Assembly (NCBI GenBank): GCA_049523455.1
Contig: JBEKMW010000003.1
Location: 3,736-67,735 of the forward strand
Length of the DNA: 64,000 bases
Reading direction: 5' to 3'
From: Verrucomicrobiota bacterium
GTDB taxonomy: Bacteria; Verrucomicrobiota; Verrucomicrobiia; Limisphaerales; UBA11358
Below the pieces are notes generated by a model, which saw nothing but the letters and a program-made list of their open reading frames with translations, searched no databases and was not told the DNA's origin. Shown here piece after piece: positions 9,959 to 64,000 of the stretch. The position numbers and the translations under genes were made by a program. The stretch's first letter is position 1. Each line of letters begins with the position of its first letter.

Positions 9959-9978
9959 GTTGTGCATTTGACCGCCGC

Positions 9979-44700: not shown

Positions 44701-47700
44701 ATGTCTCTCCCAGGGCAACCGTCTGGCTGATGCGTTGCCCAATACTTACGAAGGGATAAGCCGTTTCCGGCGTAAAATAGCCGAAATTATTCGATGCCAC
44801 CATCGTCCCATCCACATAAAGGCGGGCAGCACCGGACACTTTATCGTAGGTTACGGCCGCATGTTGAAAACGGCTCGTCACAAACAATCCATTCGGACTG
44901 GTGATGGTATGGCCATTCCCCGATGTGTCTCTGAGATTTGAGAATAAATTAATTCCCGACCACAGTTCCGGGCCGTCCCCAATGGGAGAGGGGCTGGCCA
45001 TCGAGTATTCTATCATCGGCCCATTTGCAGCATTGACATAGGCATCTTTTATCCAGCATTCCAGAGTGATGCCGCTGCCGTATGCGCCCACATTCAAACT
45101 TGGCGAGTTGGAAACCAGGACATAACCGCTGTTGTCGCCATAAAATTGAAAGGCTTCGCCCACTTCACCGCCCGAATAGCCAACCTCTCCGGATATGGTT
45201 CCATTATTTCCATTGATACTTTCCACGGTGTTACTCTCCGCCCGCCACCAGGCGGCAATCGCCGGCCCGCGATACGCAAACGTAAACGTGTAAGCCCCGT
45301 TGGTTATTGTGGAAGGGAAAGTATAAGACAGCCCGCCGTTGGCAAGGGCCAGAAGATTCGTGCCCTGATAGGCATTGGTCGGGTCGGTGACCACACTGAC
45401 CTCATTCGTGGTCACCGTCCAACCGCCTATGGTCGCGCCGGCGGCAAAATCCGCCGCCATCATGCCTTCAAAGTTGTTGGTTACCACCACCGTGTTCGTC
45501 ACCAACACCGTATAATTCGTCACCACCGTCGTTATATTGGTCTCCACGATGGATATCCCCGCGCCGCTCGTGCTCATGCCCCCCTCGTTTTCCATCAGCA
45601 AATACCGCGTGCCGTTCGGGCTGATCAACTGGAACACCAGGTCCGAAATCCGCGTGTCCGCCACCGCAATGCCCACGCTCAGCGACTGGATCAAACTCGG
45701 GTTCGCCACCAGAATGGAACTGTAAGACACCGCGTCATCCGGAATCACCGTTGGCCCGCCCTCGTAATCCACATTGGTAATCGCCGACTGCGAAAAAGCC
45801 AGCGTGGCGTAGATATGAACGTTCGCCGCGACCAGGCTGGGATTGTAGATGCCGACATAATAAGTTCCCGGCGCCAGCGGCGGGCCCACCGAAACATAAT
45901 TGGTATAAAAGTCAACGGGCCCGCCGGAAACGGGGAAGTCGTTAGTCAACCAGGCTTCCTCATTGGTGTCCGCGAACGTCGGGTCCGAGCCGTAATTGAC
46001 ATAAAGTTGCAACGGCGGTGACGATTCAGGCGGATACTCCTCGGCCACCACCGTCAGGTTCGTGTACCCCACCGGCACGTCTTGGAAGGTATAGACCCAA
46101 CTGCCGGGCTCAACGGTCACGTTAATGCCGTGGGTGAGCGGCGTATAAGGCACGAGCGTCATGGTCAAGGCCGCCACATAACCGGTATGCGTCAGCGCCG
46201 TGTCCGCCTCGGTCATCATCCATACCCCGATGCCCTGGCTGCCGAAGAAGCTCTGCAAGCTGCCCGGCCCATCGGACAATATCGCGCCCTGCACATTCGT
46301 AATCCCGCCGTCACTGTAGGCAAGATTGTACGGTCCCGGCGGGTTGCCCAGATCATCATGGTTGTTGAGCACCACGCTCGTGCCGTTATGATTGAGCGTG
46401 CCAATCAGATCGCCGTAATTCTGATGCCAAATCGAATCATCCACAATTACCTGTCCCACCTCCATCGGATACAGCGCCAAGCCGAAAGTGTAGGCGTAGC
46501 CCGGATTTTTCAGGTCGCCGTCGGGAATGTTATTGGGCAGCGGGATGCCGTTGACTATCTGATTGCCATTGTTCATCTCGCTGAATGGCGTCGAAGTAAA
46601 CACCGACAGGAAATCGTACTCCGCCGCCATCTGCCGCTCCGAATACACGCCAATGTAATACACCTGGCTATGCGTCGAATTCGTGTCCACCACGAATTGC
46701 GTCCCGCTCAGGCTCAACGACGCCCCGTTGAACACCGGCGGCGTCCCCGCCGACGCGCCGATTTGCGTCCCGTTGATGCAGTTCGAAATCGTCACCGGCG
46801 ACAGCGTCAGCAAATTCGAATCCGTCGTCACATACAGGTCAATGTCCGCCCCCGGCGTGGTTGCGTTGTCCACGTTCGGCTGGTACACGCCGATCCGCGG
46901 AATCGAAAGTGTGTTCGGCAGGAACGTGATGAACGCCGCGTTGGACAGGCTCAATCCGTTGGTGGTCAACTGCGAATTCGTCACCACGTAGAAATGCCAC
47001 TGGTTGGTCATGCCCAGTGTATCCACCGCATCGGCCGCGTAAGGCGAACCCGGCGCGAAGTCTGCCTGGTTGGTCCCCAGCAACGGCGTGCTCGCCCCGG
47101 CAAACTGGTCCATCAGCGGCGCATTGGTGGTAACGATGTAGGTGATGTCCTGGTCACCCGTCGGATTGTAAAGCTGCCCGCCATCCGCGACCGTCATGGC
47201 GTTGGTCACCTCGCCTTCCCCGCTGGAAATCACCAGCGCGAAATCCTGCACCACGTTGTTCGAGTTCGCCGTCACCGCGTTTACATTCACGTCGCGCGCC
47301 AGCACCGTGATCGAATAATTCGTCCCCACCGGCTGCGAAATATAGACGTTCTTGACGTTGTTCACGTAATCGTAAGCCACCACATCGTTCGTCCCGTGCG
47401 GGTTGTTGAAATCTCCCGACGAAATGTCATTGCCATAATAAACGATCGGCGGATTGGCGCCGTAATTGGTCACCACCAGGTCCAGGTTGTTCACCAGCTT
47501 GATCGCCGCCGCCGGGTCGCCGGGCGGGTCCGTCCAAGCCAGCGTCACCCGCAACGGCAGCAGCGTCTGCGCCGTGGCGCTGGTTATGTTCACCAGATAC
47601 GTGTGGCTCCCGCCCGTCGCCAGCGCGTTCGTCGGATTCTGGTCCAGGATAAACTCCGAACACCCCGCCCCGATCTGATTCGTCAATCCCGCCGGCACCG

Positions 47701-50032: not shown

Positions 50033-50103
50033 AGGAATCAAGGGTTAATGTTTCATAATTCAACCGCTAACAAAAGTAAAGCCAAACCGCCCAAATCCTC
50101 GCC

Positions 50104-50184
50104 TAAAAAACTATTTAAACCGCGAAATACGCAAAATACGCGAAAGAAAACGCTTTTTTCGCGTGGTTGGCGTATTTCGCGGTT
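50104..50184 (-). terminator. Long hairpin with T-tract between the pseudopilin operon and the giant gene (terminator/attenuator candidate)
   Basis: Perfect 15-bp arms AACCGCGAAATACGC (50118-50132) and GCGTATTTCGCGGTT (50170-50184). On the minus strand these are followed by TAAATAGTTTTTTAGG. It may equally be a dispersed repeat. Confidence 0.35.
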
Positions 50185-50390
50185 CTCTCCACTCCCTATA
50201 TTGGGCAGTCGCGAGACGACGGCGCGCACGGACCCCGACATCCGATGTCGGGGGGGGTGACGCGCCCTACCGAACGCGACCACCGGACTTCTCCGGGACG
50301 CGCGAAGCGTTTGGACTGCGGCGCGTTCACCGCCGCTTTCGCCACCCAAGTTCCGTGTTCCATCTTCCATCTTCGGTCTTCCGTTTCCGG

Positions 50391-50415
50391 CGCGCGGCCT
50401 TCAGGCCGCTTCAAC
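50391..50415 (-). repeat. Hairpin box copy 2
   Basis: Exact 20-nt core, about 360 nt upstream of the giant-gene ATG, in the same orientation. Confidence 0.9.
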
Positions 50416-50529
50416 GCCCGTACGTTTCGACGCGCGGATCCGCCTGATACCCGTCCGCCACCCAAATTCCATCCCCCATCTTCCATCATCTGCCTCCTCC
50501 TCCGCTCTCCGCTCTCCTCTCTCCCTTCC

Positions 50530-53500
50530 TCAATCCGGCGGCAGCGGCGTCGCGCTCTCCACCACCACGTGCGGGTTGGCCGTCCCCGCGCCGTCCACCC
50601 GCAGCACCACCCGCTGCGCACTCTCCGCCACCACCTCGTAATTCGTGCACATCCCGAAATAGGCTGTGCTCGTCACCAGCGAATTGTCCGCCGGCTTCAG
50701 CGCCTGGCCATAACAATAAACCACGTACCGCGGCGTCCCCACCCGCACCAGCCCCATCACCTGCTGCGGCAGCCATTCATACATCTCATCGCTGATCCCC
50801 TGCTGCTGTTGCGCCGTGTCATTCTGCCCGTTGTTTTGCCAATGCAAGAATGGCGACGCCACCGTCAGTTGCGGCACCGACAGCAGGTATCCCGGATGCT
50901 CGAAAACCCCTCTGGTTCCATCCGGATTCGTAAAATTGGTGCGGATGTTGTAAATGCCCTCCACGAGCTGGCCCAGCGGTGAATAGGCGCCCGCCGGCCC
51001 CGCCGGCGAAATCGGATAGGCGGTATAATTTGTCATGGTGCTGGCGGTCTGGCCTGACACGGCGTTGTCCGGCGCATCATTGGAAAGCACCATCACGCCG
51101 CTGAACAGCGCCGACCACGCCGCCAGGCTCCCCAGCGGATCGGGATTGTCCGCGCCCACGTTCACCGAAAGCTGGCCCCGCGTCGCGTCGTCGTCTATCG
51201 TCGAGCTGAATAAATCGAACAGCAGCCAGTCCTTCTTCGGCGCCGAATTCACCGCGTCATACGCATTCTCATCGCTCGTCCAGTTCACCCACAGGTTCGT
51301 GCCAATCAGTCCATTGCCGCCGATCACATCCGACGATTTCAGATAAACCGTCTGCCACGGCGTGCCCCGGTGGACCCGGCCCAGCCAACCAACCGTCGGG
51401 AACTTGTTCGTCGGAAAATTCCAGTCATCCGAACAAGTCACTAGCGGATCTTTCACCTGAAGATTGTATTGATTAATGTCTGCGCCAAAGGCTGGATTGC
51501 CGCCCCACGGCGTGTAACGCTGATTCAGCAGGCCCAAATTGCCCGGGAAATGCAATTGCAGAAAATCACCGGTGCCATTGGTGTAAAGCAAATCGCTCGG
51601 CGTATAATGCACCAGCGGATCGTTCGCCTGCCAATCAATGTCCTGCACCACCAGCGCCGACGGCGTATACGGCATCTGCATCTGGTTGGTCGTCGCGTAG
51701 ATGCCGACTTGGCCGGGATGTGGTACATAGCCCTGAAAAGTGAGGTCGGCAGCGCCTACTCCATTCAGGAAGGCGGCAAAGTCGTTCAACTGATCATAGA
51801 CCATTTGCTCCGTTTGGTTGCCCCAGTCGCTGGCAATGTAACCGGCCTGGCCCGACGAAACGATGAATTGATTTCGCATTCCCGTAGGCATCGCGTGACC
51901 GACCGGAACGTTCGTATCCCATTGATCATCGTAATAAGGATGAACCAGTGTGTCGTATCCCGCCTGAATTTCCGCAGTCAGGTCCCGTATGCTGTAGGGG
52001 CCCCCCAATTGCACGTAGTCAATCACGTGATACGGACCACCCGTAGCATCCGGGCTGGGGTCCAGCATGACCAGTCTCACATTGTTCGTCATCACCAATC
52101 CCCAGTGCGGGCTTGGATACGGCCCAAATCCCGCCAGCGCGATGTTCGTTTCATACGGCAAATTTAAATCCGTGCTCAGGTACGGACCCACATATCCCGG
52201 AAGCTCCGCGTCAGGTGGGGTATTAAAGCGGTACGTGGCGGGCGGGATGGCGCCAAAATTCGTCGGAAAGGCTCCAAAGCCAAATGCATCGGGAAAATTG
52301 GTAATGAATGAATACGGCGCCATGAGTGGGTTGCCGGCCGGATTGTATCCCGGCCAATAATTCCCGGAGTTCGGGTTGAGCGGCGTGGCCACTGTGTTGG
52401 TCATCCCGGTACTCGCACTGAATCCCAAATTATTGGTCAGCGTCATCGTCAGGGCATCGGTAATATAGACGGTGAGCGAATCGGTAAAATTGGACCGGTA
52501 CGAATTCCAGCATTCCATCCCAAACGAGTTCGTCAGCATCATGTCGTACATCGGATAAAAGCTGAAGTCGTTGGGATTGTTGTTGTAGAGGGCATTGGTG
52601 CTGGTGCGGGTCACCAACATCGTGCGCTCTAGCTGGTAGGCGCTCTCCATGAAAAATTCGTTGAAGTTCGGAAATCCCTTCTTGGCCCCGATGATCCACG
52701 GCACCCCATAGACATTTACCCCCGCGTTGAGAATCTGGCCGCCCTGGTTGGCCAAATCCCAAACATTCACCGGCGTGGAAAGCCGCAAATCGCCCGGTCC
52801 TGAGACGTTCGTTACCTCCACGTAGCCGCTGATGAAGAGATCGGCGCCATATCCGTTTGTGTCGCGCGAAAACAGCGGCCGGAAAACGTGCGGGTAATAA
52901 TAGTTCGTCGTTGCGTCATACATGTTGGCGGCGAGCTGCAAGAGCCGGTTCACCGCCGGCGTATAGCAAAACTGTCCGTTCACCCACACCGGTATGTTCG
53001 TCACCCCAAACGCCGGCACCTGGTTGGTCAACCCCAGAAACGGCAGCGTCAGCCCCACGCCCGTGGGCGAATTCGATATGTAATTTCCCTGTGCATCAAT
53101 ATACGAAAAATAATTCGTCTGGAGGCCGTAATAGGTCGCCAGGTAATTGGACGGATCTCTGTAAATCAGGCTCGTCACCGTCGAGTAATTGGTGAAATAG
53201 TCGGACGACAGCCCCTGGAACCAGTTGCTCGTGTACAGCCGCAGCATCCCGTTGGCCGCCGCCGAAAAGAAATCTATCGGCCTCCAGGGGGCAAAGTTCG
53301 TTTCCGCGTTCGGAACAATGGTAAAGCTCGTCGGCGACGGCAACGCAGTAAATATCCCCGCACCCGAGGAACTGGGAACCGCATACGTGACCACGGCGTT
53401 GGAATAATTCACGTTCAGCTTGCCCGCCTCCGGCGTCGTGTCCGAGCCCAGCTCGTCAGCCAATCGCGAGAACGTATAACGGTCATACGTGGCCACCGTG

Positions 53501-54843
53501 TTGCTCCCCGTGGCCAGCAGCCGTTCAACAAAACCTGGATAACTCACACCGACCTCGGTCTTCATCGGATCATACATATCCGAAGGCTGGCTGAAAAACC
53601 GGTTGGTGTTGTACGCGCCCACCCACGGCGCCCGCTGGATATACAAACGGTTGAAGGTGTTGTTCACGGGTATCTGAAAACCCTCCATCATCGGAACGCC
53701 GTACGTGAAAATGTCAATCCCGCTCCCTTGATACGCCGGCACCACCGTCAGCGGAAAAATGTCCTGCATCGAGCTGAGCGAATCAAAATTATTGTTATAC
53801 CGATACGCCAGCAGCGCCCGCGCATCGTTAAACGCCACTCCTTGATTGGCTTCCTCCGCCCAGGTGCCGAAAGGCGCCGTGTTGTACTGATAATAATTCG
53901 CCGCCATCGGCGGTTCGCCGCCCGAACCGACCTCTTCCCCCCATTGGTTCGTGTTTAAATCCGCCAGAAATGCCGCCAGGTTCAACTCCCACGTCCCCAC
54001 CCCCTCATTGCGCACGTAACTATCCCCGGGCCCCGGATTCACCGCCGCATTGCCCGGCGGAGGCACCGTCGGCAGCCCGCGTTGCGCCTGGTTATGAATG
54101 TAATTCACGTCCAGCGTGTTCCCCGCCGGCACGGCAAAAAAGGCGTAGCGCGACACGAACTTGTTGTTCGGCCCATGCGTCGTGTCCGGCCGCTCCAGCA
54201 TGCCCACCCACTCCGGGTCACCCACCGCAAAATTGGTGATTTCATTGCCGGAACTGTCCAGAATCGGCTTTCCCGTGTTGTCCACACTCACCACCCAGCC
54301 GTTGGCGTCGGGTTGGCCATTGCGGTTCAGGTCCAGGTAATAGCGGTTCTCATTGGTGTGATAGACCAGGTTGGTCAAATAGACCGGCACGCGCGGAGCG
54401 TAAAAGAGGTTGGCCACCGCCTGAATGAAGTCGTTCATCGAGAGCGGACCGCTGCCATTGGCATAATAATTGAAGTTCACGTTGGCCGGATTTGCCAGGC
54501 CCGAAACAAATCCGTTCGCGTTGATGTAATTGGTGGACACCAGCAGCCCAAAGTTCCACGCCCCGGCGTTGGTCGCTGTCGGTATGATGTCGTTGGTGGG
54601 ATTGGCGATGTTGGCGATGATCTGCGCCTCCGCGGCCGACAGCGCGCTGTCCGCCGCCAGCCGGGCCGTTATCGCGTCCGTGTCCGTCGTCACCGCGTTC
54701 CGTTCCCGCTGGCTCAGCGCCAGAAACGCCACCGCCATGAGCAGGGTCACGGACAACAAAATCAGAGTAATAATCAGCGCCACGCCTTCGGAATGACGCC
54801 CGCTGCTCGCCCGCAACGCGCGGCCTTCAGGCCGCTTCAACAT
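50530..54843 (-). CDS. Giant GspK-like minor pseudopilin candidate (1437 aa)
   Basis: N-terminus MLKRPEGRALRASSGRHSEG-VALIITLILLSVTLLMAVAFLALSQRERNA is a GspK-style pilin-like helix without Glu5. An EAGKLNVNYSN motif resembles the GspK GK(L/I)N(L/V)N box. It is the last gene of the pseudopilin series. The longest ORF starts at 54978, where its ATG overlaps the upstream stop as ATGA. Confidence 0.6.
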   Translation of the reverse strand: MLKRPEGRALRASSGRHSEGVALIITLILLSVTLLMAVAFLALSQRERNAVTTDTDAITARLAADSALSAAEAQIIANIANPTNDIIPTATNAGAWNFGLLVSTNYINANGFVSGLANPANVNFNYYANGSGPLSMNDFIQAVANLFYAPRVPVYLTNLVYHTNENRYYLDLNRNGQPDANGWVVSVDNTGKPILDSSGNEITNFAVGDPEWVGMLERPDTTHGPNNKFVSRYAFFAVPAGNTLDVNYIHNQAQRGLPTVPPPGNAAVNPGPGDSYVRNEGVGTWELNLAAFLADLNTNQWGEEVGSGGEPPMAANYYQYNTAPFGTWAEEANQGVAFNDARALLAYRYNNNFDSLSSMQDIFPLTVVPAYQGSGIDIFTYGVPMMEGFQIPVNNTFNRLYIQRAPWVGAYNTNRFFSQPSDMYDPMKTEVGVSYPGFVERLLATGSNTVATYDRYTFSRLADELGSDTTPEAGKLNVNYSNAVVTYAVPSSSGAGIFTALPSPTSFTIVPNAETNFAPWRPIDFFSAAANGMLRLYTSNWFQGLSSDYFTNYSTVTSLIYRDPSNYLATYYGLQTNYFSYIDAQGNYISNSPTGVGLTLPFLGLTNQVPAFGVTNIPVWVNGQFCYTPAVNRLLQLAANMYDATTNYYYPHVFRPLFSRDTNGYGADLFISGYVEVTNVSGPGDLRLSTPVNVWDLANQGGQILNAGVNVYGVPWIIGAKKGFPNFNEFFMESAYQLERTMLVTRTSTNALYNNNPNDFSFYPMYDMMLTNSFGMECWNSYRSNFTDSLTVYITDALTMTLTNNLGFSASTGMTNTVATPLNPNSGNYWPGYNPAGNPLMAPYSFITNFPDAFGFGAFPTNFGAIPPATYRFNTPPDAELPGYVGPYLSTDLNLPYETNIALAGFGPYPSPHWGLVMTNNVRLVMLDPSPDATGGPYHVIDYVQLGGPYSIRDLTAEIQAGYDTLVHPYYDDQWDTNVPVGHAMPTGMRNQFIVSSGQAGYIASDWGNQTEQMVYDQLNDFAAFLNGVGAADLTFQGYVPHPGQVGIYATTNQMQMPYTPSALVVQDIDWQANDPLVHYTPSDLLYTNGTGDFLQLHFPGNLGLLNQRYTPWGGNPAFGADINQYNLQVKDPLVTCSDDWNFPTNKFPTVGWLGRVHRGTPWQTVYLKSSDVIGGNGLIGTNLWVNWTSDENAYDAVNSAPKKDWLLFDLFSSTIDDDATRGQLSVNVGADNPDPLGSLAAWSALFSGVMVLSNDAPDNAVSGQTASTMTNYTAYPISPAGPAGAYSPLGQLVEGIYNIRTNFTNPDGTRGVFEHPGYLLSVPQLTVASPFLHWQNNGQNDTAQQQQGISDEMYEWLPQQVMGLVRVGTPRYVVYCYGQALKPADNSLVTSTAYFGMCTNYEVVAESAQRVVLRVDGAGTANPHVVVESATPLPPD
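54817..54840 (-). repeat. Hairpin box copy 3
   Basis: Exact 20-nt core immediately after the ATG at 54843 of the GspK-like gene (ATG TTG AAG CGG CCT GAA GGC CGC). Confidence 0.9.
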
Positions 54844-54974
54844 CGGGCCGGCAAGCGGTAAAACACTTGATTTACGGGCTTGCGAACCTCGAAGCGGCAT
54901 AAATGCCGCGCCCCGCCGCCCGATCGGCGGCGCGCCATTCGTCATTCGTAATTCGTCATTCGTAATTCGAAATT

Positions 54975-55925
54975 TCATGGGTACGCCGTAAGATCAACAT
55001 TGGGTATCATCACCCGCTGCCGGAATATGTGCAATCCGCCCGCCTGGCCGGACAGGTAATTGTTTTGCGCCGCCGTCCCGTTCGGCCACGTGCCCGCCCG
55101 CTGGATCACGTTGTCCTCCAGCAGCCCCATTTGCACCTCCACCGACGCCGGCAGCGCGTTGCTGAACAGGTAAAACCCCGCCTCGCCCCAGGCTGGCGGC
55201 ATAAACGTCGCCCCGTTCGTCAGAATCAGTATGTTCGTGTAGGGATACGTATAGTAGTTGGTCATCCAGTAACCCTGGTGGTTGTAAATCCGCGCCTGCA
55301 AATCCACCACCCCGTCGAGCAGGTGGCTCCAATTGACGTTGGTGTAGCCCAGCGGCGTTTCCACATTCGCCAGAAACGTGTTGAACAGCACCACCGGGTT
55401 CGGCGTCTCCTCCACGTTCGTCGTCACGTAATACCGGTACAGCGGATAAAAATCGTTCGTGGCTCCCGGGAAAACCGCGTAGCCCGTGCCCACCCACACG
55501 GGATGCCCGTTCAAGTTGTTCTGGGCCAATATGAATATATTCTCCAGCAGGTTCGTCCGCGTGGCCCCGCTGCCCGGCAGCGTGTTCGCCAGCGGCTGCC
55601 CGCAATCGAAATTCGTGTACGCGTAAAAATTCACCGCGTTGGCCATCGAATAAGCGAAAAGGTTGGAAAAACTGTTCCAGCTCCCCCCGCCCTCCGACGC
55701 CGTCATCTGCCGCAGGTCGGCCGCCATCATGTCCATCGTCGCCCGTCCGCCTTCCAGCACGTCGGTCTGGGTGACGCTCGCGCGAAATGCCCTCTGCGTG
55801 AAGTCGAACACCGCCATCAGCGCCAGCACGATCAGCGCCAGCAGGCTCACCACCAGCATCACCTCAATCAGCGAAAATCCGGTGCGAGCATTTACGATTT
55901 CCGATTTACGATTTTCGATTGCCAC
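54975..55925 (-). CDS. Minor pseudopilin (prepilin-type N-terminal methylation domain; GspJ-like by position)
   Basis: Contains ARTG-FSLIEVMLVVSLLALIVLALMAVFDFTQRAF. An in-frame GTG at 55925 gives a 16-aa leader. The ORF-track start (GTG at 56429) would add about 170 aa made only of dispersed repeats. Confidence 0.7.
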   Translation of the reverse strand: MAIENRKSEIVNARTGFSLIEVMLVVSLLALIVLALMAVFDFTQRAFRASVTQTDVLEGGRATMDMMAADLRQMTASEGGGSWNSFSNLFAYSMANAVNFYAYTNFDCGQPLANTLPGSGATRTNLLENIFILAQNNLNGHPVWVGTGYAVFPGATNDFYPLYRYYVTTNVEETPNPVVLFNTFLANVETPLGYTNVNWSHLLDGVVDLQARIYNHQGYWMTNYYTYPYTNILILTNGATFMPPAWGEAGFYLFSNALPASVEVQMGLLEDNVIQRAGTWPNGTAAQNNYLSGQAGGLHIFRQRVMIPNVDLTAYP

Positions 55926-56029
55926 CGGTGCGCGGCGTTCACGCCGCTTCAGCGTGCCCAGCGGTGCCTGGCCGGAAAATTCCTGAATCTCCAGCCGGCG
56001 CCACGATGAAGCGGCATAAATGCCGCGCG

Positions 56030-56235
56030 CCCCATGAACCGGGGAAACATCGAACATCGAACATCGAACGCCGAACATCGAATGAAAGCAACGAGTCCTC
56101 ACCTCATCGGCCTTCGCCTGGAGGCTACGGCCCGATAGGCCCTGACCCTCTCCCCTCCCATCCGAGTTAATACCCTCACCCTGTCCCTCTCCCATCAGAA
56201 TGGGCGAGGGAATAGGAGAGGGAACAGCCAGCGGG
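56030..56235 (+). repeat. Composite dispersed repeat, copy A
   Basis: CCCCATGAACCGGGGAAACATCGAAC(heptamers)...CTCACCTCA...CCCTGACCCTCTCCCCTCCCATCCGA...GGGAACAGCCAGCGGGG. It aligns with the reverse complement of 59291..59419, with two extra internal segments. Confidence 0.8.
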
Positions 56236-56425
56236 GCCGAATGGTGGCCCGGGAGACTGGCAGCTTGCGACAGGTTCAGGGGTTCTATGGGCGAACTTGT
56301 TGGGGGAAATCTCTTCCCTCTCCTCTCTCCCCACTCCCCTCTTCCCTCTTCCCTGCCGGTGCTGCGCGACCGCCGGGCTTCTCCGCCCCGCGCATCGGCT
56401 GCAGTAAATTTTTGCAAATTGAGTT

Positions 56426-57367
56426 TCACGGCGTCGTGACCACGTTGTTAAAGGATTGCGGCTGGTAAAAATACAGCCATTGGTTGTCCACATTCGTCTG
56501 AAAAATCATTCCGCCCACCATCGTCCGGCACGTCCACCGGCCCGGGCCCACCCCGCCGGCGGGATATAGCGGCCACAGAAACGTGAGCCGCAATTCATGC
56601 AGGCTGGCGGCCAGTTGCTGGTTGTACGGCGGCACGCCGCTGTAATTAATCGCCGTGTCCAACAGGTTCGTGTCCATCGCCATCGGCGCATTCACGCAAA
56701 ACACCAGGTAACTGAACGCGCCCGCCAGCACGTCCGCGTTGGCCTGCGGCGGCTTCTCCGTCGCCGGCCCGCTCATGGACCGCACGTACGCCACCACGTG
56801 ATTGCTGTAGCCCCCGCTCAACAAATTGTTCGTCGGGTTGTACTCCAGGTCCAGATATTCGGGCATGCTCATCAGCCCGATGATGCGCAGGCCGTTGGTC
56901 AGCGGGAAAAACGTCGAAGTCGGTATTCCCGGTTTCGGCCGGATCTGCGAGCCTGAGTAGGTGTAACCATCCACCTGCGCCGGACCGGGCGCCGCCCGGC
57001 CGTTCCGAAACTCCACCCAGTAGTTCGTGATGGCATAGACGTAATTGGTCAGGTCATCCAGCCCTTGCGCCCCGCCGCGCATCGCTTCCATCAGCATGGT
57101 CGCGTCCTGGTTGATCACCGTCTGCTCCCGATTGTCGCCCTGCGTCCGCATCCCAAACGGCAGCACCGCGATGATGGACACCAGCGCGAACCCGATGATC
57201 GCCAGGCAGATCGCAATCTCAATCATGGTGAAGGCGCGGACATTGCCAATTGCCGATTGCCAATTGACGAATGAGGGACGCGGACCAGCAGCAGCACGCC
57301 GGTCGCGGTTGCTTCGATCGGGTTCAATCGGCACTTGGCAATCGAAAATCGAAAATCCCAGTCTCAT
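56426..57367 (-). CDS. Minor pseudopilin (prepilin-type N-terminus; GspI-like by position)
   Basis: Contains GNVRA-FTMIEIAICLAIIGFALVSIIAVLPFG. The ATG at 57367 overlaps the upstream stop (ATGA). The only other in-frame canonical start is a GTG 34 codons before the Phe. Confidence 0.7.
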   Translation of the reverse strand: MRLGFSIFDCQVPIEPDRSNRDRRAAAGPRPSFVNWQSAIGNVRAFTMIEIAICLAIIGFALVSIIAVLPFGMRTQGDNREQTVINQDATMLMEAMRGGAQGLDDLTNYVYAITNYWVEFRNGRAAPGPAQVDGYTYSGSQIRPKPGIPTSTFFPLTNGLRIIGLMSMPEYLDLEYNPTNNLLSGGYSNHVVAYVRSMSGPATEKPPQANADVLAGAFSYLVFCVNAPMAMDTNLLDTAINYSGVPPYNQQLAASLHELRLTFLWPLYPAGGVGPGRWTCRTMVGGMIFQTNVDNQWLYFYQPQSFNNVVTTP

Positions 57368-58314
57368 GGTGTCATCTTGTGGTATTCCAGCACCGCCCGT
57401 CCCGTCAGCCAGTCTATATGCACAATGTTATACGCCATGTTGGTGCTGTTCCCCGGCGGCGTGTCCAGGATCTGCACGTTGCCGAACTGCAGCGCCTTCG
57501 TGTTCACGTTGATCTGCGGCGCCACGTTCCCCTGCGCCAGCGGGATGTATTCATCCCGCCCCGACACCAGTTGCCCCAGGTAATTGAACGCAATGTAAGG
57601 CAGCCAGATCGCATTGGCCGGCGGCGGCACCGCGCTGTCCTGCGTTGGAAACGGTATGTCGTTGGTGTATTCGAACGGCGCAATCGGATAGGCTATCCCG
57701 GATACCGGGTCCGTTATCGTATTGGTGCCCACAAATTTCTGAAGCTGGATATAGTCCCCCTCCGGCAGGTTTTGCCAGGGCGCCAGATAATGCCAGGCGT
57801 GCTCTCCGGGCTGGTCGCCCATCGCCCCGTACGCCACAAACGTGTAACCGGTCAACTGCTTGTCCACGATATTGGTGGCCGCCGTTTGTTGCGCCGGCGT
57901 CAGGTAGTGGGTCCACCATTGATTGTTGGGCGCCGCGCTCCCCGACACGTCCACCCAGAAATTCGTCGGCACAAATACCATATAGACCGTCGTCCGCTGG
58001 CTCATGGCCAACTGGCGCGCCCGCCCCACGTCGTCCAGCAACTGCCGCGCCGCCCCGGCATTCACGTTCGATTTCCCTATGTTCTTCAGCGCCGGCACCG
58101 CCAGCCCCGCCAGGATCCCCAGGATGGCGATCACCACCAGCAACTCCGCAATCGTAAACCCGCGGCGATTGAAGGTTGCAGGTTGCGCCGTTCGCTCTTT
58201 TTCGTCCCCTGCGTCCTTTCCGCTTAGAGGCTGGCCGTTGAAGCCTTTGCGATCCGTCCCGTTTCGGCCGGAAACCTTCAACTTGCAACTTGCAATCTGC
58301 AACCCGGTTTTCAT
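57364..58314 (-). CDS. GspH/FimT-like minor pseudopilin
   Basis: Contains FNRRG-FTIAELLVVIAILGILAGLAVPALKNIGKSNVNAGAARQLLDDVGRARQLAMSQRTTVYMVF, the GspH-type pattern. ATG at 58314. The closest alternative start is a TTG 41 codons before the Phe. Confidence 0.75.
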   Translation of the reverse strand: MKTGLQIASCKLKVSGRNGTDRKGFNGQPLSGKDAGDEKERTAQPATFNRRGFTIAELLVVIAILGILAGLAVPALKNIGKSNVNAGAARQLLDDVGRARQLAMSQRTTVYMVFVPTNFWVDVSGSAAPNNQWWTHYLTPAQQTAATNIVDKQLTGYTFVAYGAMGDQPGEHAWHYLAPWQNLPEGDYIQLQKFVGTNTITDPVSGIAYPIAPFEYTNDIPFPTQDSAVPPPANAIWLPYIAFNYLGQLVSGRDEYIPLAQGNVAPQINVNTKALQFGNVQILDTPPGNSTNMAYNIVHIDWLTGRAVLEYHKMTP

Positions 58315-58315
58315 T

Positions 58316-59122
58316 CTACTGCCAGCTCAAAACGTTGTCTTTGTTGTAACTGGTAGTCACAGGATTATTGGCATCAAGCCTCCCGTCAAACCCCGCCGAC
58401 CACACCATCGCCTTGGCGTGAAGTTGGAAATGGTTGCCGTTGCCGTTCGGATCGGTTTGGTTGACCAAGCCGTTGTAACCCGATTGGCCGCCCGACGGCT
58501 GCTGCGAAACTTTTTGCATACAATAAAAGGCGTCAAAACAAAACCCGTCATAATTCAAATCCATCGTGATCACGTACGGATTGCCCCACGGATCGCGATA
58601 GACGCCATTGATGTCCACGCCACCCAGCGCGGCACCCGGCACCGACGGGTTGTAGCCGGACTGTTTGGCGTTCAAAAAAATGGTTTGGTTGGGGTTCTTG
58701 ACATACCCCGCATTCACCCCGCTGGCCCAATTGGTGTTGTTCATCAAAATGGCCACCACCTCCGCATTGCTCGTGGTAAACACGGAGTCACCCGCCGGCA
58801 GCCCGCCCAACGCAATGTTCGTGGCAAACGTGCTGCCCCCGTAAGTGAAATCTCCGTCGTTGTTAGGCAGGATCCCGGATGCGGCTATGGCCTGTGTATT
58901 CGAAGAAACCGGAAACCGGCTGTACGACGCATCGTAGCTCTCAATGGCTTGCAGTATCCCCTGCTCGTCCACCGACGCCTGCCGCTTCTGCGCGGAGCGC
59001 CTGGCCGCGGCGAGCGTCGGCAACAGCATCGCCGCCAGAATCGCAATGATGGCGATGACGGTAAGCAGTTCAATTAGCGTGAAGGCGCGCGGTCGGCGTG
59101 ATCGGTTCGCAACGTTTTTCAT
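58316..59122 (-). CDS. GspG-like major pseudopilin paralogue 2 (268 aa, enlarged)
   Basis: MKNVANRSRRPRA-FTLIELLTVIAIIAILAAMLLPTLAAARRSAQKRQ gives a normal 13-aa leader. GspG hallmarks DPWGNPY and VWSAGFDG are present. ATG at 59122. The ORF-track ORF extends to 59758 through repeats. Confidence 0.8.
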   Translation of the reverse strand: MKNVANRSRRPRAFTLIELLTVIAIIAILAAMLLPTLAAARRSAQKRQASVDEQGILQAIESYDASYSRFPVSSNTQAIAASGILPNNDGDFTYGGSTFATNIALGGLPAGDSVFTTSNAEVVAILMNNTNWASGVNAGYVKNPNQTIFLNAKQSGYNPSVPGAALGGVDINGVYRDPWGNPYVITMDLNYDGFCFDAFYCMQKVSQQPSGGQSGYNGLVNQTDPNGNGNHFQLHAKAMVWSAGFDGRLDANNPVTTSYNKDNVLSWQ

Positions 59123-59290
59123 AGGTTTGAAGGATGCGGAGTTTCGGCGCAAAGCAGGCAACGGCAGCGGCCCGGCGAATGGCGGCGTTGGCACAATCCG
59201 TATGGCTGGCGCCTGGCCCGTGCGCCCCTGGTCTTCCTCTCCCTCCCCCTGAATCTGCCGATGCCCGGCGAGCCTCCGAATACGAATGTT

Positions 59291-59419
59291 GCCCGCTTGC
59301 TGTTCCCTCTCCGCTCCCATCGGATGGGAGGGGAGAGGGTCAGGGTGAGGTGAGGGTTTTGCTTTCGTTGGATGTTGGGCGTTGAATGTTGAATGTTGAA
59401 TGTTCCCCGGTTCATGGGG
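59291..59419 (-). repeat. Composite dispersed repeat, copy B (inverted relative to copy A)
   Basis: The reverse complement reads CCCCATGAACCGGGGAACATTCAACATTCAACATTCAACGCCCAACATCCAACGAAAGCAAAACCCTCACCTCACCCTGACCCTCTCCCCTCCCATCCGATGGGAGCGGAGAGGGAACAGCAAGCGGGC. Confidence 0.8.
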
Positions 59420-59712
59420 AGGGCCAGGGTGAAGGGTTTGATCCTGATCATTCACCGCCCCGTCGCCGAAACCGGCCGGCGGCAGTTCCACGCCGCTCAA
59501 CGACCCCGGAATCGCCGCCACTATCAGCGGATACCACCCACACTCCTGCCAGGTGATCTCCAGCAGCCGCTGGCCGGAAGTTTGGAGTCCCGCCTTCAGG
59601 CGCTTCGCGCGAAAACCTCCCGCCGCCGCCGCGCGGTAGGGCGGCGCTGCCGCGCCGCCATTCGCGCTTTCCGCGCGGCTCGTCTCATTTTTCCGGTTGC
59701 GGCTCATAAAAT

Positions 59713-60536
<824 letters not shown>

Positions 60537-60540
<4 letters not shown>

Positions 60541-60836
60541 CGCTCGCGCAGTTCGTTCTCCATCCGCTCGCTCAGCCACTGTTTGATCATGCTCTGGTAA
60601 TTCAAATACCGCGACCGCGCCAGCCGTTTGATGCGCGCCAGCATCCGCGGGTCCATCCGCAGCGTGATGGTCACCGATTCCGACGCTTCCGACCCGCCCG
60701 CGGTGGCCGCTTCCATCATCCGCAAGTCCGGCCGGTTCTCCGCCCAGAAACTCGCCTCCGCTCCTTCGCTGTCGAAGAGCGGCACGTCTTCCCAGTTGGC
60801 AAACGTTCGCATAACTGCCAGACACCACTTAACCAT
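60537..60836 (-). CDS. BrnA-like antitoxin (CopG/RHH-type C-terminus)
   Basis: FDSEGAEASFWAENRPD and SVTITLRMDPRMLARIKRLARSRYLNYQSMIKQWLSERM match the BrnA pattern. It lies immediately downstream of the BrnT-like gene, as in known brnTA operons. Confidence 0.7.
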
Positions 60837-60851
60837 TCACCGCTTCCGGCC

Positions 60852-61148
60852 TCACTTCTCCCCCAGGTTCAACGTCTGTTCCATCTTCCGCTGGTAAAAA
60901 AATCGCTCTTCCGGTTCAAACTCCCGCGCGTGCAGCACCCGCACCGTCCGGCCATTCGTGCGATACACACTGATAATTCCCACGCCGCCCGCCGAAATGC
61001 CCATGTTAAAAAACCGGGCCTGGGCACTGAAGCGCTTGGAATCCGGCAACAGCCGTACCGCAAACGGGTCCTCAAATGATTCCTCGATTTCCCGCTGAGT
61101 GAAGGCGCCACCCAGGTCAAATGGCGGACTATTCCAATCGAACTCCAT
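60852..61148 (-). CDS. BrnT-like toxin (DUF497 family)
   Basis: MEFDWN..., FEDPFAVRLLPD, and GIISVYRTNGRTVRVLHAREFEPEE resemble the BrnT/DUF497 consensus (M.FEWD, F.DP.A....D, .RIISAR.A...E). Confidence 0.65.
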   Translation of the reverse strand: MEFDWNSPPFDLGGAFTQREIEESFEDPFAVRLLPDSKRFSAQARFFNMGISAGGVGIISVYRTNGRTVRVLHAREFEPEERFFYQRKMEQTLNLGEK

Positions 61149-61178
61149 ATCGGCTCAGTTGTAAATAATGCGCACATG

Positions 61179-61223
61179 CAATGTGTTTACATTGTATTTA
61201 CGCATTGCCCCGACTTTTGTCAA
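61179..61223 (-). promoter_or_regulatory. Sigma70-like promoter plus palindromic operator candidate upstream of brnT
   Basis: On the minus strand: TTGACA (61223-61218), a 17-nt spacer, TAAATA (61200-61195), then the palindrome CAATGTAAACACATTG (61194-61179). It lies about 30 nt before the brnT ATG, in a locally AT-rich patch. Confidence 0.4.
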
Positions 61224-61393
61224 CACTTTTTTGCGCGCTTTTTGACGAAGTTCCGCGCCCCGCCGCCCCGCCAGCCCGCCGCCCACACCTCAAAAGCCTC
61301 TAAACCACGTCACCCCAATTGGATGCCAAACCCACCCCCATTCCAGGTTAATCCAGGTTAATCCAGGTCTTTTCAGCGTCCCACCGTTGGGAA

Positions 61394-62701
61394 TTACACT
61401 CCGCCACCTGCACCACCGCCGCCGTTTCCGCTCAGGTTATTGATCATGGCGATCAGCGGCAGAAACATCGCAATCACAATGCTGCCCACGACCACCGCAA
61501 GAAAAATAATCATGATCGGCTCCAACAACGAAGTCATCGAAGCCACGGCATTGTCCACCTCTTCCTCGTAATTGTCGGCAATGCGCAAAAGCATTTCCGG
61601 CAGTGCGCCGGTTTGTTCACCCACGTCCACCATGCTCACGACCATGGGAGGAAAAACCCCCGAGCTTTCCAGCGGCGCGGTGATGGTTTCACCCTCCTTG
61701 ACGCTTTCATGCACCTTGCCTACGGCGTTGGCGATGACCACGTTGCCGGCTGTTTCTTTCACAATGGTCAGCGCCTGCAAAATCGGCACGCCGCTGCTGA
61801 CCAGGGTGCCCAGGGTCCGGGTGAAACGGGAAATGGCCACTTTGCTGACGACCGGCCCAAACGCCGGCACCTTGAGCTTGAATTTGTCCCACAACAACCG
61901 GCCCAGTTTGGTTTTGACGGCCAGCAGAAACAGCACCCACACGACCGCCACGCACGAGAGCGTGGTTATAATGTGCAGCCGCACGGCGTCGCTGACCGCG
62001 AGCACAAAAAGAGTGAATCCGGGCATCTGCACTCCCATGCCATGGAAGACGTCTTTGAAGCGGGGCACCACGAACGTCAACAACAAGGTCAAAATGCAGG
62101 TGGCCACGACCAGGACGGCAATGGGATAAAACAGCGCGGCCTTGATCTTGCCGCGAATCTTCTGCGCCTTCTCGGAAAACTCCGCCAGGCGCTTCAACAC
62201 CACTTCCAGCACACCGCCCAGTTCGCCGGCCTTGACCATGTTCACGAACAACCGGTTAAAGACCCTGGGATGCTGCGCGAGCGCCTCCGAGAAGGTGCTG
62301 CCGCCTTCAATCGCCAGCGCCAGATCACCGAGGATTTCCTTGAGCGTCCCGTTGCGCTCCTGCTTCTCCAGCACCCGCAGTCCGCGCAGCAGCGGCAGCC
62401 CGGCGTCCACCAGCGTCGCCAATTGCCGCGTAAACGTCGTCAACACCTTCGGCTTCACCCGTCCGCTCAGGAAGGGGATCTTGATGTTGAGGTTCACGTT
62501 CATCCCGCCGCCCTTTTTGCCGCTGGCTTTCGCCTTTTTGGCGGACGGTTTGCCGGTCACCCGTTCGGCCTCCGTAATGCGGGTGGGGAACAGTCCCATT
62601 TCTTTCACGCGGCCAATGGCCTCATTTTGGCTGGTCACTTCCAGCGTCCCTTTGGTTTCCTTGCCGCGCGCATCCAGCGCCACGTAATTGTATTTGGCCA
62701 T
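61394..62701 (-). CDS. gspF: Type II secretion / type IV pilus platform protein GspF/PilC family
   Basis: 435 aa. N-terminus MAKYNYVALDARGKETKGTLEVTSQNEAIGRVKEMGLFP. Two T2SSF-type repeats with 3 TM helices. Starts 5 nt after the gspE stop. Confidence 0.9.
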   Translation of the reverse strand: MAKYNYVALDARGKETKGTLEVTSQNEAIGRVKEMGLFPTRITEAERVTGKPSAKKAKASGKKGGGMNVNLNIKIPFLSGRVKPKVLTTFTRQLATLVDAGLPLLRGLRVLEKQERNGTLKEILGDLALAIEGGSTFSEALAQHPRVFNRLFVNMVKAGELGGVLEVVLKRLAEFSEKAQKIRGKIKAALFYPIAVLVVATCILTLLLTFVVPRFKDVFHGMGVQMPGFTLFVLAVSDAVRLHIITTLSCVAVVWVLFLLAVKTKLGRLLWDKFKLKVPAFGPVVSKVAISRFTRTLGTLVSSGVPILQALTIVKETAGNVVIANAVGKVHESVKEGETITAPLESSGVFPPMVVSMVDVGEQTGALPEMLLRIADNYEEEVDNAVASMTSLLEPIMIIFLAVVVGSIVIAMFLPLIAMINNLSGNGGGGAGGGV

Positions 62702-62706
62702 AACGA

Positions 62707-64000
62707 TCAGGTGTATTTGACTATTTCTTCGATGGTTGTATCACCCTCAAAAATGCTCCGCAAGCCGTCTTCACGCAACGTCACCATGCCCAACTCCACC
62801 GCTTTTTGCCGCAACACCACCGTCGGAGCGCGTTCGTTGATCAATCCCCGGATCGCTTCGGCGATGACCAACAACTCAAAAATCCCCTTCCGCCCCTTGT
62901 ACCCGGTATCATTGCAGCTCGAACAGCCGCGGCCATAATGAAACACCTTGTCGCCCAGGTCATGCGGCGAAAGATTCAGCAAGGTCAATTGCTCTTCCGT
63001 CGGTTCGAACGGCGTCCGGCAGTTCTTGCAAATGGTCCGCACCAGCCGTTGCGCCAGCACCGCCATGAGGGTGGACGAAATCAAAAATGGTTCCACGCCC
63101 ATGTCAATCATACGGGTAATCGCCCCGGGCGCGTCGTTGGTGTGCAGTGTGCTTAATACCAGGTGCCCCGTGAGCGACGCCTGAATGGAGATCTGCGCCG
63201 TCTCCAGGTCGCGCATTTCACCCACCATGATGATGTCCGGGTCCTGGCGCAAAAAGGATCGCAGCGCCTTGCCGAACGTCATGCCCACGGCTTCGTGGAT
63301 GGCCACCTGCATGATGCCCTCGATATCATATTCGACCGGGTCCTCGGCGGTCAGCAGCTTGGAGTCAATGGCGTTGACGCGGCGCAGGCACGAGTACAAT
63401 GTCGTCGTCTTGCCGCAGCCCGTCGGGCCCGTGACAATGAAGATGCCGTTGGGCCGCTGGATCACCTCGGTTACGAAATCATGAATGTACTTGGGAAAGC
63501 CCAGCATTTCGAGGTCCAGATTCACCGCCGCGCGATCCAGTACCCGCAACACCACCGATTCGCCAAACTGCGTCGGCAGGGTGGAGACGCGCAAGTCAAT
63601 CTGACGGTTGTTGATATTCAGATTGATGCGGCCGTCTTGCGGCAGGCGCCGTTCCGAGATGTTCAGGCTCGACATGACCTTCAGGCGCGAAATCACCGGC
63701 AGCGCCAGGTGTTTGGGCGGCGGCGACATTTCGTACAGCGCGCCGTCCACGCGATAGCGGATGCGAAACTCGGTTTCGAATGGCTCAAAGTGAATGTCGC
63801 TCGCACGGTCCTGGATGGCCTGCTGTAACACGAGATTGACGAACTTTACGATCGGCGCTCCGTTGGCCAATTCGGCCAGGCGCTTCTCGTCTTCGCTGTC
63901 GGCTTCGCTTAACTCGCGCGCCACGTCGTCGGCGCCCAGTTCCTTGAGAATATCCGAAAACGACTCGCTCTCTTCATGCCCGTAAAGGCGGTCGAGCACG
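62707..64000 (-). CDS. gspE: GspE/PilB-family secretion ATPase (5' end outside the window)
   Basis: Walker [11 protein letters not shown] (Cys where Ser is usual), Asp box [11 protein letters not shown], Walker [13 protein letters not shown], His box [12 protein letters not shown] and tetracysteine CKNC...CSSC. The ORF runs off the window end. Confidence 0.92.

Follow-up and report, generated by a model that had tools for sequence, protein, structure and literature searches.

Six pilin-like genes on the minus strand of a 64,000-nucleotide stretch of DNA from a Verrucomicrobiota bacterium (Limisphaerales, UBA11358; assembly GCA_049523455.1, contig JBEKMW010000003.1, positions 3,736 to 67,735; hereafter the window) probably carry class III signal peptides of a very long kind. 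Their leaders would have 45-208 residues, would be translated in a coupled manner from the end of the preceding gene, are made up of repeat DNA, and would be tolerated since they are cleaved off in the cytoplasm. The genes follow one another in one operon and are referred to here as G1, G2, H, I, J and K. Textbook class III leaders have 6-30 residues, and this length is assumed by pilin-finding tools and gene callers. What seems to be new, as far as a comparison of genomes can tell, is that long leaders precede all six pilin-like genes, are maintained order-wide, are built of repeats and are swapped between strains.

An earlier note on this DNA had drawn attention to the H-like and I-like genes, and it had left a choice between unprecedentedly long, repeat-derived leaders and non-canonical initiation of translation. 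The evidence laid out below favors the former. That the long leaders are kept as open frames and are really translated is, on this evidence, the most likely interpretation.

Frame maintenance across related loci

The spacers in front of the pilin-like genes were compared in 80 orthologous Limisphaerales loci (the best 80 of at least 220 matches, taken from species-representative genomes) and in one locus of a sister species, L081. In every spacer of at least 60 nt, stop codons were counted in each of the three frames between the stop of the upstream gene and the first codon of the mature protein. An untranslated spacer is expected to have stops at equal frequency in all three frames. What was found is a deficit in one of them: when the six genes are pooled, the pilin frame is free of stops in 229 of the 250 spacers, as compared with 45 and 71 for the other two frames (Table 1), and this count favors long leaders over non-canonical initiation. 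Twelve further H loci, positioned by tblastn match coordinates, gave a similar picture, with 11 of them open in the pilin frame. For comparison, the five remaining frames of the leader DNA have a background of 2.7-3.6 stops per 100 codons. Most of the exceptions among the I spacers are loci where our script had skipped a gene, and in each of the seven exceptions for H there is one stop, after which an ATG stands about 20 nt past the upstream gene.

Table 1. Spacers without a stop codon, by gene and by reading frame
Gene	Spacers (n)	Pilin frame	Frame +1	Frame +2
G1	23	21	1	4
G2	49	45	4	12
H	52	45	6	19
I	45	39	12	11
J	42	42	13	17
K	39	37	9	8

These counts bear directly on the idea that the repeats form an untranslated 5' leader RNA, with translation beginning at a non-canonical or near-cognate codon near the cleavage site and the arrays recruiting the ribosome or binding a regulator. 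Such a leader predicts no constraint on the frame, and we regard it as unlikely for this and for other reasons that are taken up with the start codons below. It is harder still to credit that the long open reading frames (ORFs) arose by chance or by faulty annotation of GC-rich DNA, or that the genes are decaying pseudogenes. The genome does have a G+C content of 59%, long spurious ORFs are common in the window, and gene callers disagree over these genes, with called leaders of 5-64 residues and some calls that begin inside the mature part. The stop deficit, however, is confined to one frame and recurs in six genes and about 80 genomes, and conservation of the mature parts is strong (an alignment of 12 sequences has 90 invariant columns). 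Moreover, the loci whose calls begin within the mature part turn out to have open leaders with start codons all the same, and for that reason such calls (P0012, P0045 and others) were rejected as candidates for closed leaders or OFF alleles. The inconsistency of the automated annotation, in which predicted starts range from position -64 to inside the mature protein, would follow from leaders that are long and variable.

In the window itself, all six pilin frames are open back to the previous gene, over 151 codons for G1, 239 for G2, 56 for H, 65 for I, 190 for J and 70 for K, as against 5-86 codons in the other frames. The earlier note had reported open frames through the repeats before K, J, G1 and G2, and for these four genes the report is confirmed in the pilin frame. 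The J spacer illustrates the point well: over 548 nt it has no stop in the pilin frame and six in each of the other two, with open runs of 190 codons versus 5 and 10. Two repeat-rich spacers in front of non-pilin genes of the window served as controls, and both have stops in all three frames. The one from K to the giant S8 gene, 488 nt long, contains the same types of repeats and has 7, 2 and 4 stops in its three frames. The one between the genes for the membrane fusion protein (MFP) and AcrB has 3, 1 and 1. The MFP-to-AcrB spacer (9846-9978, minus strand) is filled by a hairpin cassette with an 8-nt period, in which AATGGATT arrays face AATCCAAT arrays (9855-9890 and 9910-9955) and which ends about 10 nt before the AcrB ATG.

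The earlier note had proposed to compare the leaders of orthologues in length and frame. The answer differs for the two: the frame is kept, and the length and the sequence are free to vary. The length of the H spacer modulo 3 (26, 28 and 9 loci in the three classes) carries no signal alone because the start floats 0-5 nt from the stop of the upstream gene.

Start codons and their probable coupling to the preceding gene

A codon-by-codon walk through the H leader places the ATG at codon 0 (58314-58312, position -52), TTG codons at 4 (-48) and 11 (-41), and an ATT at codon 6 (-46). The TTG at -41 and the ATG at -52, which had been named as the nearest in-frame starts, are thus correct. The start-free stretch before the cleavage site, G/FTIAELL (the slash marks the point of cleavage), is real and even longer than the 29 codons first claimed, since codons 12-51, 40 in all, contain no NTG or ATH. 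The walk through the I leader (GNVRA/FTMIEI) likewise found the expected GTG at -34 and ATG at -45 (57367-57365). It also found in-frame ATT codons that had gone unmentioned, one at -6 (57250-57248) inside a heptamer array, and others at -32 and -39. Counted from their only ATGs, the leaders have 52 (H) and 45 (I) codons, outside the range of 6-30 residues. The leader peptide is hydrophilic, with a Kyte-Doolittle hydropathy of -0.58, and carries a net positive charge of +0.11 per residue; it would include peptides such as TGLQIASCK in H and LGFSIFDCQVPIEPDR in I. The distance to the closest canonical start reaches 26 codons or more in 24 of the 63 H loci identified by regular expression, the window included, and in about 16 I loci; the situation in the window is therefore typical of the clade.

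Both ATGs had been described as ATGA overlaps with the preceding stop codons. This is so for I, whose ATG overlaps the H stop (CCATGAGA), an arrangement kept in about 40 orthologous loci. It is not so for H, where G2 ends in TGG CAG TAG and a single A separates the stop from the ATG. The argument built on the overlaps, that they favor the ATGs as real starts, holds in a broader form, as starts positioned for coupling close to the stop are conserved. Across the loci the H start is mostly an ATG, and in the majority of them it is found at -4 to +5 nt relative to the stop of G2; I and K overlap by ATGA, and J by GTGA or ATGA. The end of the G2-like protein, NKDNVLSWQ, is conserved as well.

With the start codons at hand, the untranslated leader can be weighed more fully. 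The arrays end 3-5 codons before F+1, the first residue of the mature protein, as far as the cassette of the MFP-to-AcrB spacer ends before the AcrB ATG, and the TAACTGA repeats of Beggiatoaceae sit a few nucleotides upstream of start codons (PMC4679880). The ATT at -6 in the I leader could be counted in its favor too; H in the window, on the other hand, goes without any NTG or ATH for 40 codons. We saw no Shine-Dalgarno-like sequence before the coupled ATGs, but neither do the H leader ends listed share a near-cognate codon at a fixed distance from F+1; both of these statements were made by eye and are unquantified. Finally, the replacement of TGA by TGG, described further below, is restricted to the pilin frame. 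Translational bypassing, in which the ribosome would hop over the hairpin as in gene 60, was also considered and rejected, as a skipped segment would need neither a frame nor freedom from stops.

Repeat composition of the leaders

According to the earlier note, the leader sequences are translations of heptamer microrepeats that are found elsewhere in intergenic DNA. Tandem Repeats Finder (TRF) bears this out. It places period-7 arrays inside the leaders of H and I (Table 2) and of K, J, G2 and G1 (at 54937, 55890, 56046, 59381 and 60493, the last being the (GATTGCC)x5 array in G1, 60493-60526), and it places others outside the operon, at 6180, 15278, 18317, 34728, 34817, 50358 and 50500. A stringent scan of the whole 64 kb gave 10 arrays of period 7, as compared with 0-4 for each of the periods 5, 6 and 8-11. 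The tracts are short and imperfect, with 2.6-5.4 copies of units that include TTGCAAC, TGGCAAT, TTCGATT, CGATGTT, CGTAAAT, TACGAAT, ATTCAAC, GATTGCC and GTGACAA/TGTCACG, among others. Each leader has a 5' array just past the ATG that is partly complementary to a 3' array, which ends 3-5 codons before the cleavage site. In addition, the J, K and G2 leaders carry GC-rich palindromes, which belong to families with several copies in the window.

One such family is a GC-rich double palindrome. This element, GCGGCATTTATGCCGC ... GCGGCCTGAAGGCCGC, which reads ...FMPLRGSQ...LKRPEGRA..., is found on the minus strand in the K leader (54818-54911) and the J leader (55927-56031), and also in the untranslated spacer between K and the giant gene (50200-50330). 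Copies of another family, CCCTCTCCC...GGGAGAGGG, lie at 56146-56222 and at 59305-59339.

The same composition is seen in the related genomes. In 52 orthologous H spacers the identity at lag 7 is 0.46, and at the remaining lags between 3 and 12 it is about 0.25. Among the best 120 of the 3325 homologues found with H, the predicted leaders have 5-64 residues, and nearly all are translations of heptamer arrays that reach the cleavage site, with ends such as ...VTRHPSG/FTL, ...IENRKSKIENG/FTL and ...FNLQPSTFNLRGG/FTL. The unit families are limited in number across species and genes, and can be listed by the peptides they encode: VTCHVSR, IENRKSK, GDCGLRT, FNLQPST, SAFSLQP, IRNSQFA and QSSIINH. Often a family is present as the 5' array and its reverse complement as the 3' array.

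It is worth pointing out a peculiarity of heptamer arrays. As 7 and 3 are coprime, a perfect array encodes the same seven-residue peptide in all three frames, and it follows that such an array is free of stops either in every frame or in none. For the same reason the composition of the leader does not tell the frames apart: hydropathy, charge and transmembrane-like windows were found to be the same in the pilin frame and in the other frames of the leader DNA.

The arrangement of the arrays as facing arms raises another possibility, one that is compatible with translated leaders. The hairpin cassettes could be functional RNA that tunes pseudopilin stoichiometry, either through a slowing or gating of the coupled ribosomes or by providing processing and stability sites for RNase III or RNase E. 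We consider this doubtful, though worth keeping in mind. Compared with dinucleotide shuffles, the 52 H spacers are far more structured (median RNA-fold z of -2.0, half of them below -2), complementary 5' and 3' arms flank the H, I and K leaders, and the arms vary in sequence by species and yet seem by eye (unquantified) to remain complementary. The leaders of the window, however, fold weakly, with a z of -1.7 for I and of -0.75 for H (-0.27 in a second computation), the latter not being significant. Conserved mature genes are also found with alleles that have a single array or no repeat at all (the 9-residue leaders; L084), which argues that such a role is not essential. The same cassettes, moreover, precede unrelated genes. 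A scan of positions 50000-64000 against Rfam (E of 0.1 or less) returned only a sub-threshold match to Antizyme_FSE on the opposite strand; with no match above threshold, the leaders are not accounted for by any known RNA family. In the literature searched, no paper was found on heptamer repeats or pilin leaders in Verrucomicrobia.

Turnover of the leaders and stop-specific repair

Across the loci, the leaders range from 9 to 80 codons for H, 13 to 99 for I and 12 to 114 for K, and reach 184 for J. At the lower end are loci with short spacers, where the H leader is VKxARRQSG/F, 9 residues long, and those of I and K have about 14 and 12 residues. To judge from these loci, short leaders of about 9 (H), 14 (I) and 12 (K) codons are probably the ancestral state.

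The exchange of leaders can be followed at close range. In the sister species (L081), the H protein is 89% identical, and the leaders are wholly different and made of other repeat families. Its H and I spacers, 517 and 464 nt, are open in the pilin frame over 170 and 176 codons, versus 87 and 31 codons (H) and 12 and 80 codons (I) in the other frames. Within clusters of at least 90% protein identity, leaders of 9, 28, 30, 34, 43 and 64 residues are found on near-identical mature proteins, and some carry in-frame nested insertions of 36 and 72 nt. Two loci, L083 and L084, are almost identical up to the G2 stop and again from F+1 onward, and the leader segments in between, 49 and 88 nt long, are unrelated.

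One repeat family allows selection on stops to be seen at the level of single nucleotides. In the AGTG[A/G]CA units of the GTGACAA family, the TGN triplet ends in G in all 23 cases where it falls in the pilin frame and in A in none. Out of frame it ends in A in 39 of the 47 cases and in G in 8. This shows at sequence level that TGA is specifically replaced by TGG in the pilin frame, as expected of purifying selection, and the excess of TGG in one phase is not circular with the definition of the ORF.

Variation of this kind might call to mind phase variation, in which a change of plus or minus 7 nt would shift the frame and toggle the pseudopilins, as the CTCTT repeats do in Neisseria opa. We think this improbable, to about the same degree as the untranslated leader or slightly more so. 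The period-7 arrays do lie within the 5' coding region of H, I, J, K, G1 and G2, their unit is not a multiple of 3, and the leaders do differ between near-identical strains. The alleles, however, differ by wholesale replacement or by in-frame indels of 36 or 72 nt rather than by 7 nt; the tracts are not the long homogeneous ones of phase-variable genes; and the same arrays populate ordinary intergenic DNA. There is one leader, that of the I-like gene in L013, that is broken by an in-frame stop inside an array and could be an OFF allele, as against some 300 orthologous leaders of which essentially all are ON.

A conserved coding signature in the G2 leader

The leader of G2 differs from a mere stretch of repeats in having a conserved motif of the pattern V-[DE]-W-[HQ]-[DE]-C-x-W-x-P-x-I (EITWQECGWYPLI in the window), about 58 codons upstream of F+1. 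It is present in 37 loci, the window included (for example, near position 4910 in L010 and near 4961 in L034), and the differences among them fall mainly on third codon positions. Many of the loci show KPLP and RRKNLFK-MKT blocks after it. A nucleotide alignment of the region upstream of the internal ATG (of MKT or MKN) gave entropies of 1.19, 1.02 and 1.33 for the three codon positions, the third being more variable than the second (p=0.001). This third-position wobble implies that the G2 leader is translated well upstream of its "canonical" short start. A search for a family or homologue of the motif returned none, and its breadth is known from the 37 loci. The motif was also considered as a sigma-54 or sigma-70 promoter and rejected, as the GG/GC spacing is a misfit for sigma-54 and the third-position wobble fits coding better. 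As a conserved pro-region of a major pseudopilin, it is without a described counterpart.

A model for the origin of the long leaders

From these observations we propose that the six pilin-like genes would be translated as a coupled chain, in which each ORF starts at an ATG or a GTG that overlaps the previous stop or lies a few nucleotides from it. The ribosomes would then traverse a long, hypervariable leader until they reach the class III site, a G or A followed by F-T-x-x-E. The extra length would have arisen by insertion and turnover of dispersed intergenic repeats, that is, of period-7 arrays, hairpin pairs and GC-rich palindromes, in ancestral leaders that were short. A class III leader is cytoplasmic and is cleaved off at the cytoplasmic face, with only the residue at -1 being critical (PMC4471445). 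Because it is cytoplasmic and removed by the prepilin peptidase, the leader could be nearly neutral in both sequence and length, and an insertion would only have to keep the frame and bring no stop. In a tightly packed operon, the leader-coding stretch would then be a safe harbour for repeat DNA.

More tentatively, the cassettes and the W-x-[DE]-C-x-W-x-P pro-region of G2 may do more than persist, and may set the stoichiometry or timing of the pseudopilins, with mobile repeats being translated order-wide as leaders of 50 to more than 200 residues that are swapped between strains. The routes would be a hairpin-gated coupling, or a leader that retains the prepilin until it is cleaved by the peptidase. 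We would put this at well below even chances; if true, it would amount to a new regulatory layer in the assembly of type IV filaments, together with a new niche for selfish DNA in coding sequence.

Several points weigh against the long, coupled leaders, and they should be set out together. The loci are phylogenetically related, and the counts of Table 1 exceed the number of independent events, although the differing lengths and sequences of the leaders argue for many independent indels. Taken alone, the H and I spacers of the window are not significant, with 0, 3 and 0 stops per frame for H, where frame +2 is likewise open, and 0, 0 and 1 for I; nor is the folding of the H leader significant. 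The I-like gene of L013 (about 6800-6937) has a single in-frame TGA within its GTGGCAAGTGGCAGGTGACAAGT array, between the ATG and the cleavage site. No other leader was seen to be clearly interrupted, and apart from an OFF allele the TGA could be a sequencing error or a case of readthrough. In many loci, and in G2 of the window, there are internal starts closer to the site, either GTG codons within the arrays or the conserved MKT/MKN, so shorter isoforms of the leader may coexist with the long ones, and the frame test cannot tell which start is dominant. The I protein has an Ala at -1, scores 16.7 bits with PF07963, which is below the cutoff, and has no listing for TIGR02532. No gene for an A24 peptidase was found in the subset of the window ORFs that was scanned. 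Lastly, the evidence consists of the sequences of metagenome-assembled genomes and of frame statistics.

The operon and its pilin-like genes

The operon, one of the type II secretion / type IV filament kind, begins with genes for a GspE-like ATPase and a GspF-like platform protein, followed by a CopG-antitoxin-like pair, the pilin-like genes in the order G1, G2, H, I, J and K, and a gene for a 3765-residue protein with subtilase, LamG and RCC1-repeat domains. The pilin-like genes thus lie directly downstream of GspE-like and GspF-like genes on the same strand, the genomic association expected of type IV pilins. The coordinates of the genes, and of the elements in their leaders, are collected in Table 2.

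Table 2. Genes of the operon and elements within the leaders (window coordinates)
Feature	Coordinates	Strand	Details
GspE-like ATPase	62707 to window end (63999)	-	PF00437 / T2SSE, 5e-137; heads the operon
GspF-like platform protein	61394-62701	-	PF00482 / T2SSF, 3e-69
G1-like pseudopilin ORF	59713-60540	-	55-codon leader; F+1 at 60375; ATG overlaps the CopG-antitoxin-like stop (ATGA)
G2-like (major pseudopilin-like) ORF	58316-59707	-	208-codon leader (59084-59707); ATG 5 nt past the G1 stop
H-like pseudopilin ORF	57364-58314	-	52-codon leader (58159-58314); F+1 = TTT, 58158-58156
I-like pseudopilin ORF	56426-57367	-	45-codon leader (57233-57367); F+1 at 57232-57230
J-like pseudopilin ORF	54975-56429	-	184-codon leader (55878-56429); F+1 at 55877; start GTG at 56429, in GTGA overlap with the I stop
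K-like large minor pseudopilin ORF	50530-54978	-	leader of 65 codons (54784-54978), built of repeats, ahead of G/VALIITLILLSV; ATGA overlap with the J stop
G2 leader motif EITWQECGWYPLI	59522-59560	-	pattern V-[DE]-W-[HQ]-[DE]-C-x-W-x-P-x-I
H leader, 5' heptamer array	58279-58303	-	sense GTTGCAGATTGCAAGTTGCAAGTTG, encodes LQIASCKLK; TRF 58279-58303, 3.6 copies; pairs with 58169-58186
H leader, 3' complementary arm GCAACCTGCAACCTTCAA	58169-58186	-	inverted repeats I14/I15; stops 3 codons short of the cleavage site
I leader, 5' array and arm	57324-57357	-	TTCGATT units, then CGATTGCCAAGTGCCGATTG; TRF 57340-57357; inverted repeats I2/I5; fold
I leader, 3' array and arm	57242-57274	-	TGGCAAT units; TRF 57242-57266; inverted repeats I2/I5; holds the ATT at -6

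The contexts of cleavage are SGRA/FTLIELL for G1, RPRA/FTLIELL for G2, NRRG/FTIAELL for H, NVRA/FTMIEI for I, ARTG/FSLIEV for J and HSEG/VALIITL for K; an internal ATG in G2 offers a short form, MKNVANRSRRPRA/F. The class III pattern (G, rarely A or S, at -1; F or M at +1; E at +5; about 20 hydrophobic residues) is present in H, RRG/FTIAELLVVIAILGILAGLAVPAL, and in I, VRA/FTMIEIAICLAIIGFALVSIIAVL, as it is in G1, G2 and J, and the orthologues of I carry either G or A at -1. H exceeds the cutoffs of both PF07963 (29.3 bits versus 21.2) and TIGR02532 (28.0 versus 16.3), and G1, G2 and J exceed that of TIGR02532 as well. At the level of particular families, H reaches 30.9 against the cutoff of 80 for the GspH equivalog TIGR01708, over its N-terminal 60 residues only. 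I has no match to GspI (TIGR01707) and matches ComGE and PilV at E values of about 1e-3, and the match of G2 to TIGR01710 stays under the cutoff and is confined to the N-terminal part. None of the six genes reaches the equivalog cutoffs of GspH, GspI, GspJ or Verru_Chthon, and the letter names G1 to K are therefore positional only. Where the source of the best among the 3325 homologues of H is named, it is a member of the Verrucomicrobiota (Limisphaerales or "subdivision 3"), as in the titles of most of the loci fetched.

The neighbors of the pilin-like genes deserve a brief description. The CopG-antitoxin-like gene (60537-60836, minus strand; PF12441, 4e-9) stands between GspF and the first pilin gene; its partner, a 98-residue ORF on the same strand (60852-61148), has no Pfam match, and the sister locus L081 has the pair as well. 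The 3765-residue protein (38744-50041, minus strand), encoded immediately after the pseudopilin genes, combines a signal anchor at its N-terminus with a subtilase domain, a P-domain, a pair of LamG-type domains and, at the C-terminus, RCC1 repeats. This protein may be a cargo of the system or its tip adhesin. A homologous gene also trails the operon in L081.

Wider implications

If the leaders are what they appear to be, a whole clade makes prepilins with leaders several-fold to tenfold longer than usual, which would widen the known tolerance of prepilin peptidases and of membrane targeting. The leaders would also be a natural example of selfish or neutral repeats colonising a coding sequence, where the peptide is thrown away and nothing but frame and stops is under selection. 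A deficit of stops in one frame of an apparently "intergenic" spacer is a simple test, and it could be applied to other N-terminal peptides that are cleaved, such as those of lipoproteins and Sec substrates.

Two other genes of the window have repeats at their 5' ends. The ORF of an outer-membrane efflux lipoprotein (OEP; 4745-6283, minus strand) begins with an ATG in ATGA overlap with the stop of a small ORF before it, and a 33-codon extension with a (GGATGTT)x4 array (region 6150-6290) precedes its MFILLLAGC lipobox. Insertion of repeats into cleaved N-terminal peptides may thus extend beyond the prepilins. The UvrA ORF (31491-34772, minus strand) is open for 51 codons upstream of its conserved MSKEFIRIGGAREHNLK start, across a heptamer array (34728-34757); this extension is probably spurious, and made by the same repeats.

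Comparison with known systems

Among pilin-like proteins of the same phylum, the Verru_Chthon cassette proteins A-D (TIGR02596, TIGR02599) likewise have a GFxxxE N-terminus and occur in multi-gene cassettes. The resemblance is confined to the N-terminal 60 residues or so (34.7 against a cutoff of 70, and 19.5 against 256.5), and the genes of the window are not members of these families.

As for the repeats, several known elements share some of their features. REP, BIME and REPIN elements are untranslated dispersed palindromes. Like the elements of the leaders, they are short, colonise the spacers of operons, and are rapidly gained and lost at the level of strains. In the window, by contrast, the palindromes lie inside ORFs and are filtered for frame and stops, and their arms are tandem heptamers. 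In Neisseria opa, long homogeneous tracts of CTCTT lie in the region of the leader peptide, and their copy number toggles the frame. Here too, repeat DNA codes for an N-terminal peptide that is cleaved off, leaving the mature protein unaffected; the tracts of the pilin-like genes, however, are short, heterogeneous, nested with other families and almost always in frame.

The nearest analogues are heptamers as well, namely the short tandemly repeated repetitive (STRR) sequences of cyanobacteria and the TAACTGA repeats. The latter precede start codons in Beggiatoaceae, cyanobacteria and Bacteroidetes (PMC4679880). Common to these and to the repeats described here are short tandem arrays of 7-nt units, in 2-6 copies, which are intergenic and often stand just upstream of a coding sequence. 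They differ in that many units are in use here, none of them TAACTGA, in the pairing of complementary arrays as hairpins, and in that the arrays of the pilin genes are part of an ORF that is maintained, and not of a 5' untranslated region.

The closest comparison is with the class III signal peptides themselves, those of type IV pilins, of the pseudopilins of type II secretion systems, of the type IVb pilins TcpA, BfpA and CofA, and of Flp1. Shared with them are the hydrophilic and basic leader, the G or A before F+1, the E at +5 and the stretch of about 20 hydrophobic residues, as well as an operon with GspE-like and GspF-like genes, and the leader would likewise be expected to be cytoplasmic and cleaved. 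The described leaders have 6-26 residues, or about 15-30 in type IVb pilins, and the leader of Streptococcus sanguinis, with 18 residues (PMC4471445), has been termed very long (PMC10191384). Set against these, the word "unprecedented" that the earlier note used for H and I is fair, and it even understated the case, given predicted leaders of 184 codons in J and 208 in G2. The leaders described here appear to span 45-208 residues within a single operon, exceed 100 residues in its relatives, are hypervariable between strains, and are encoded by dispersed repeats.

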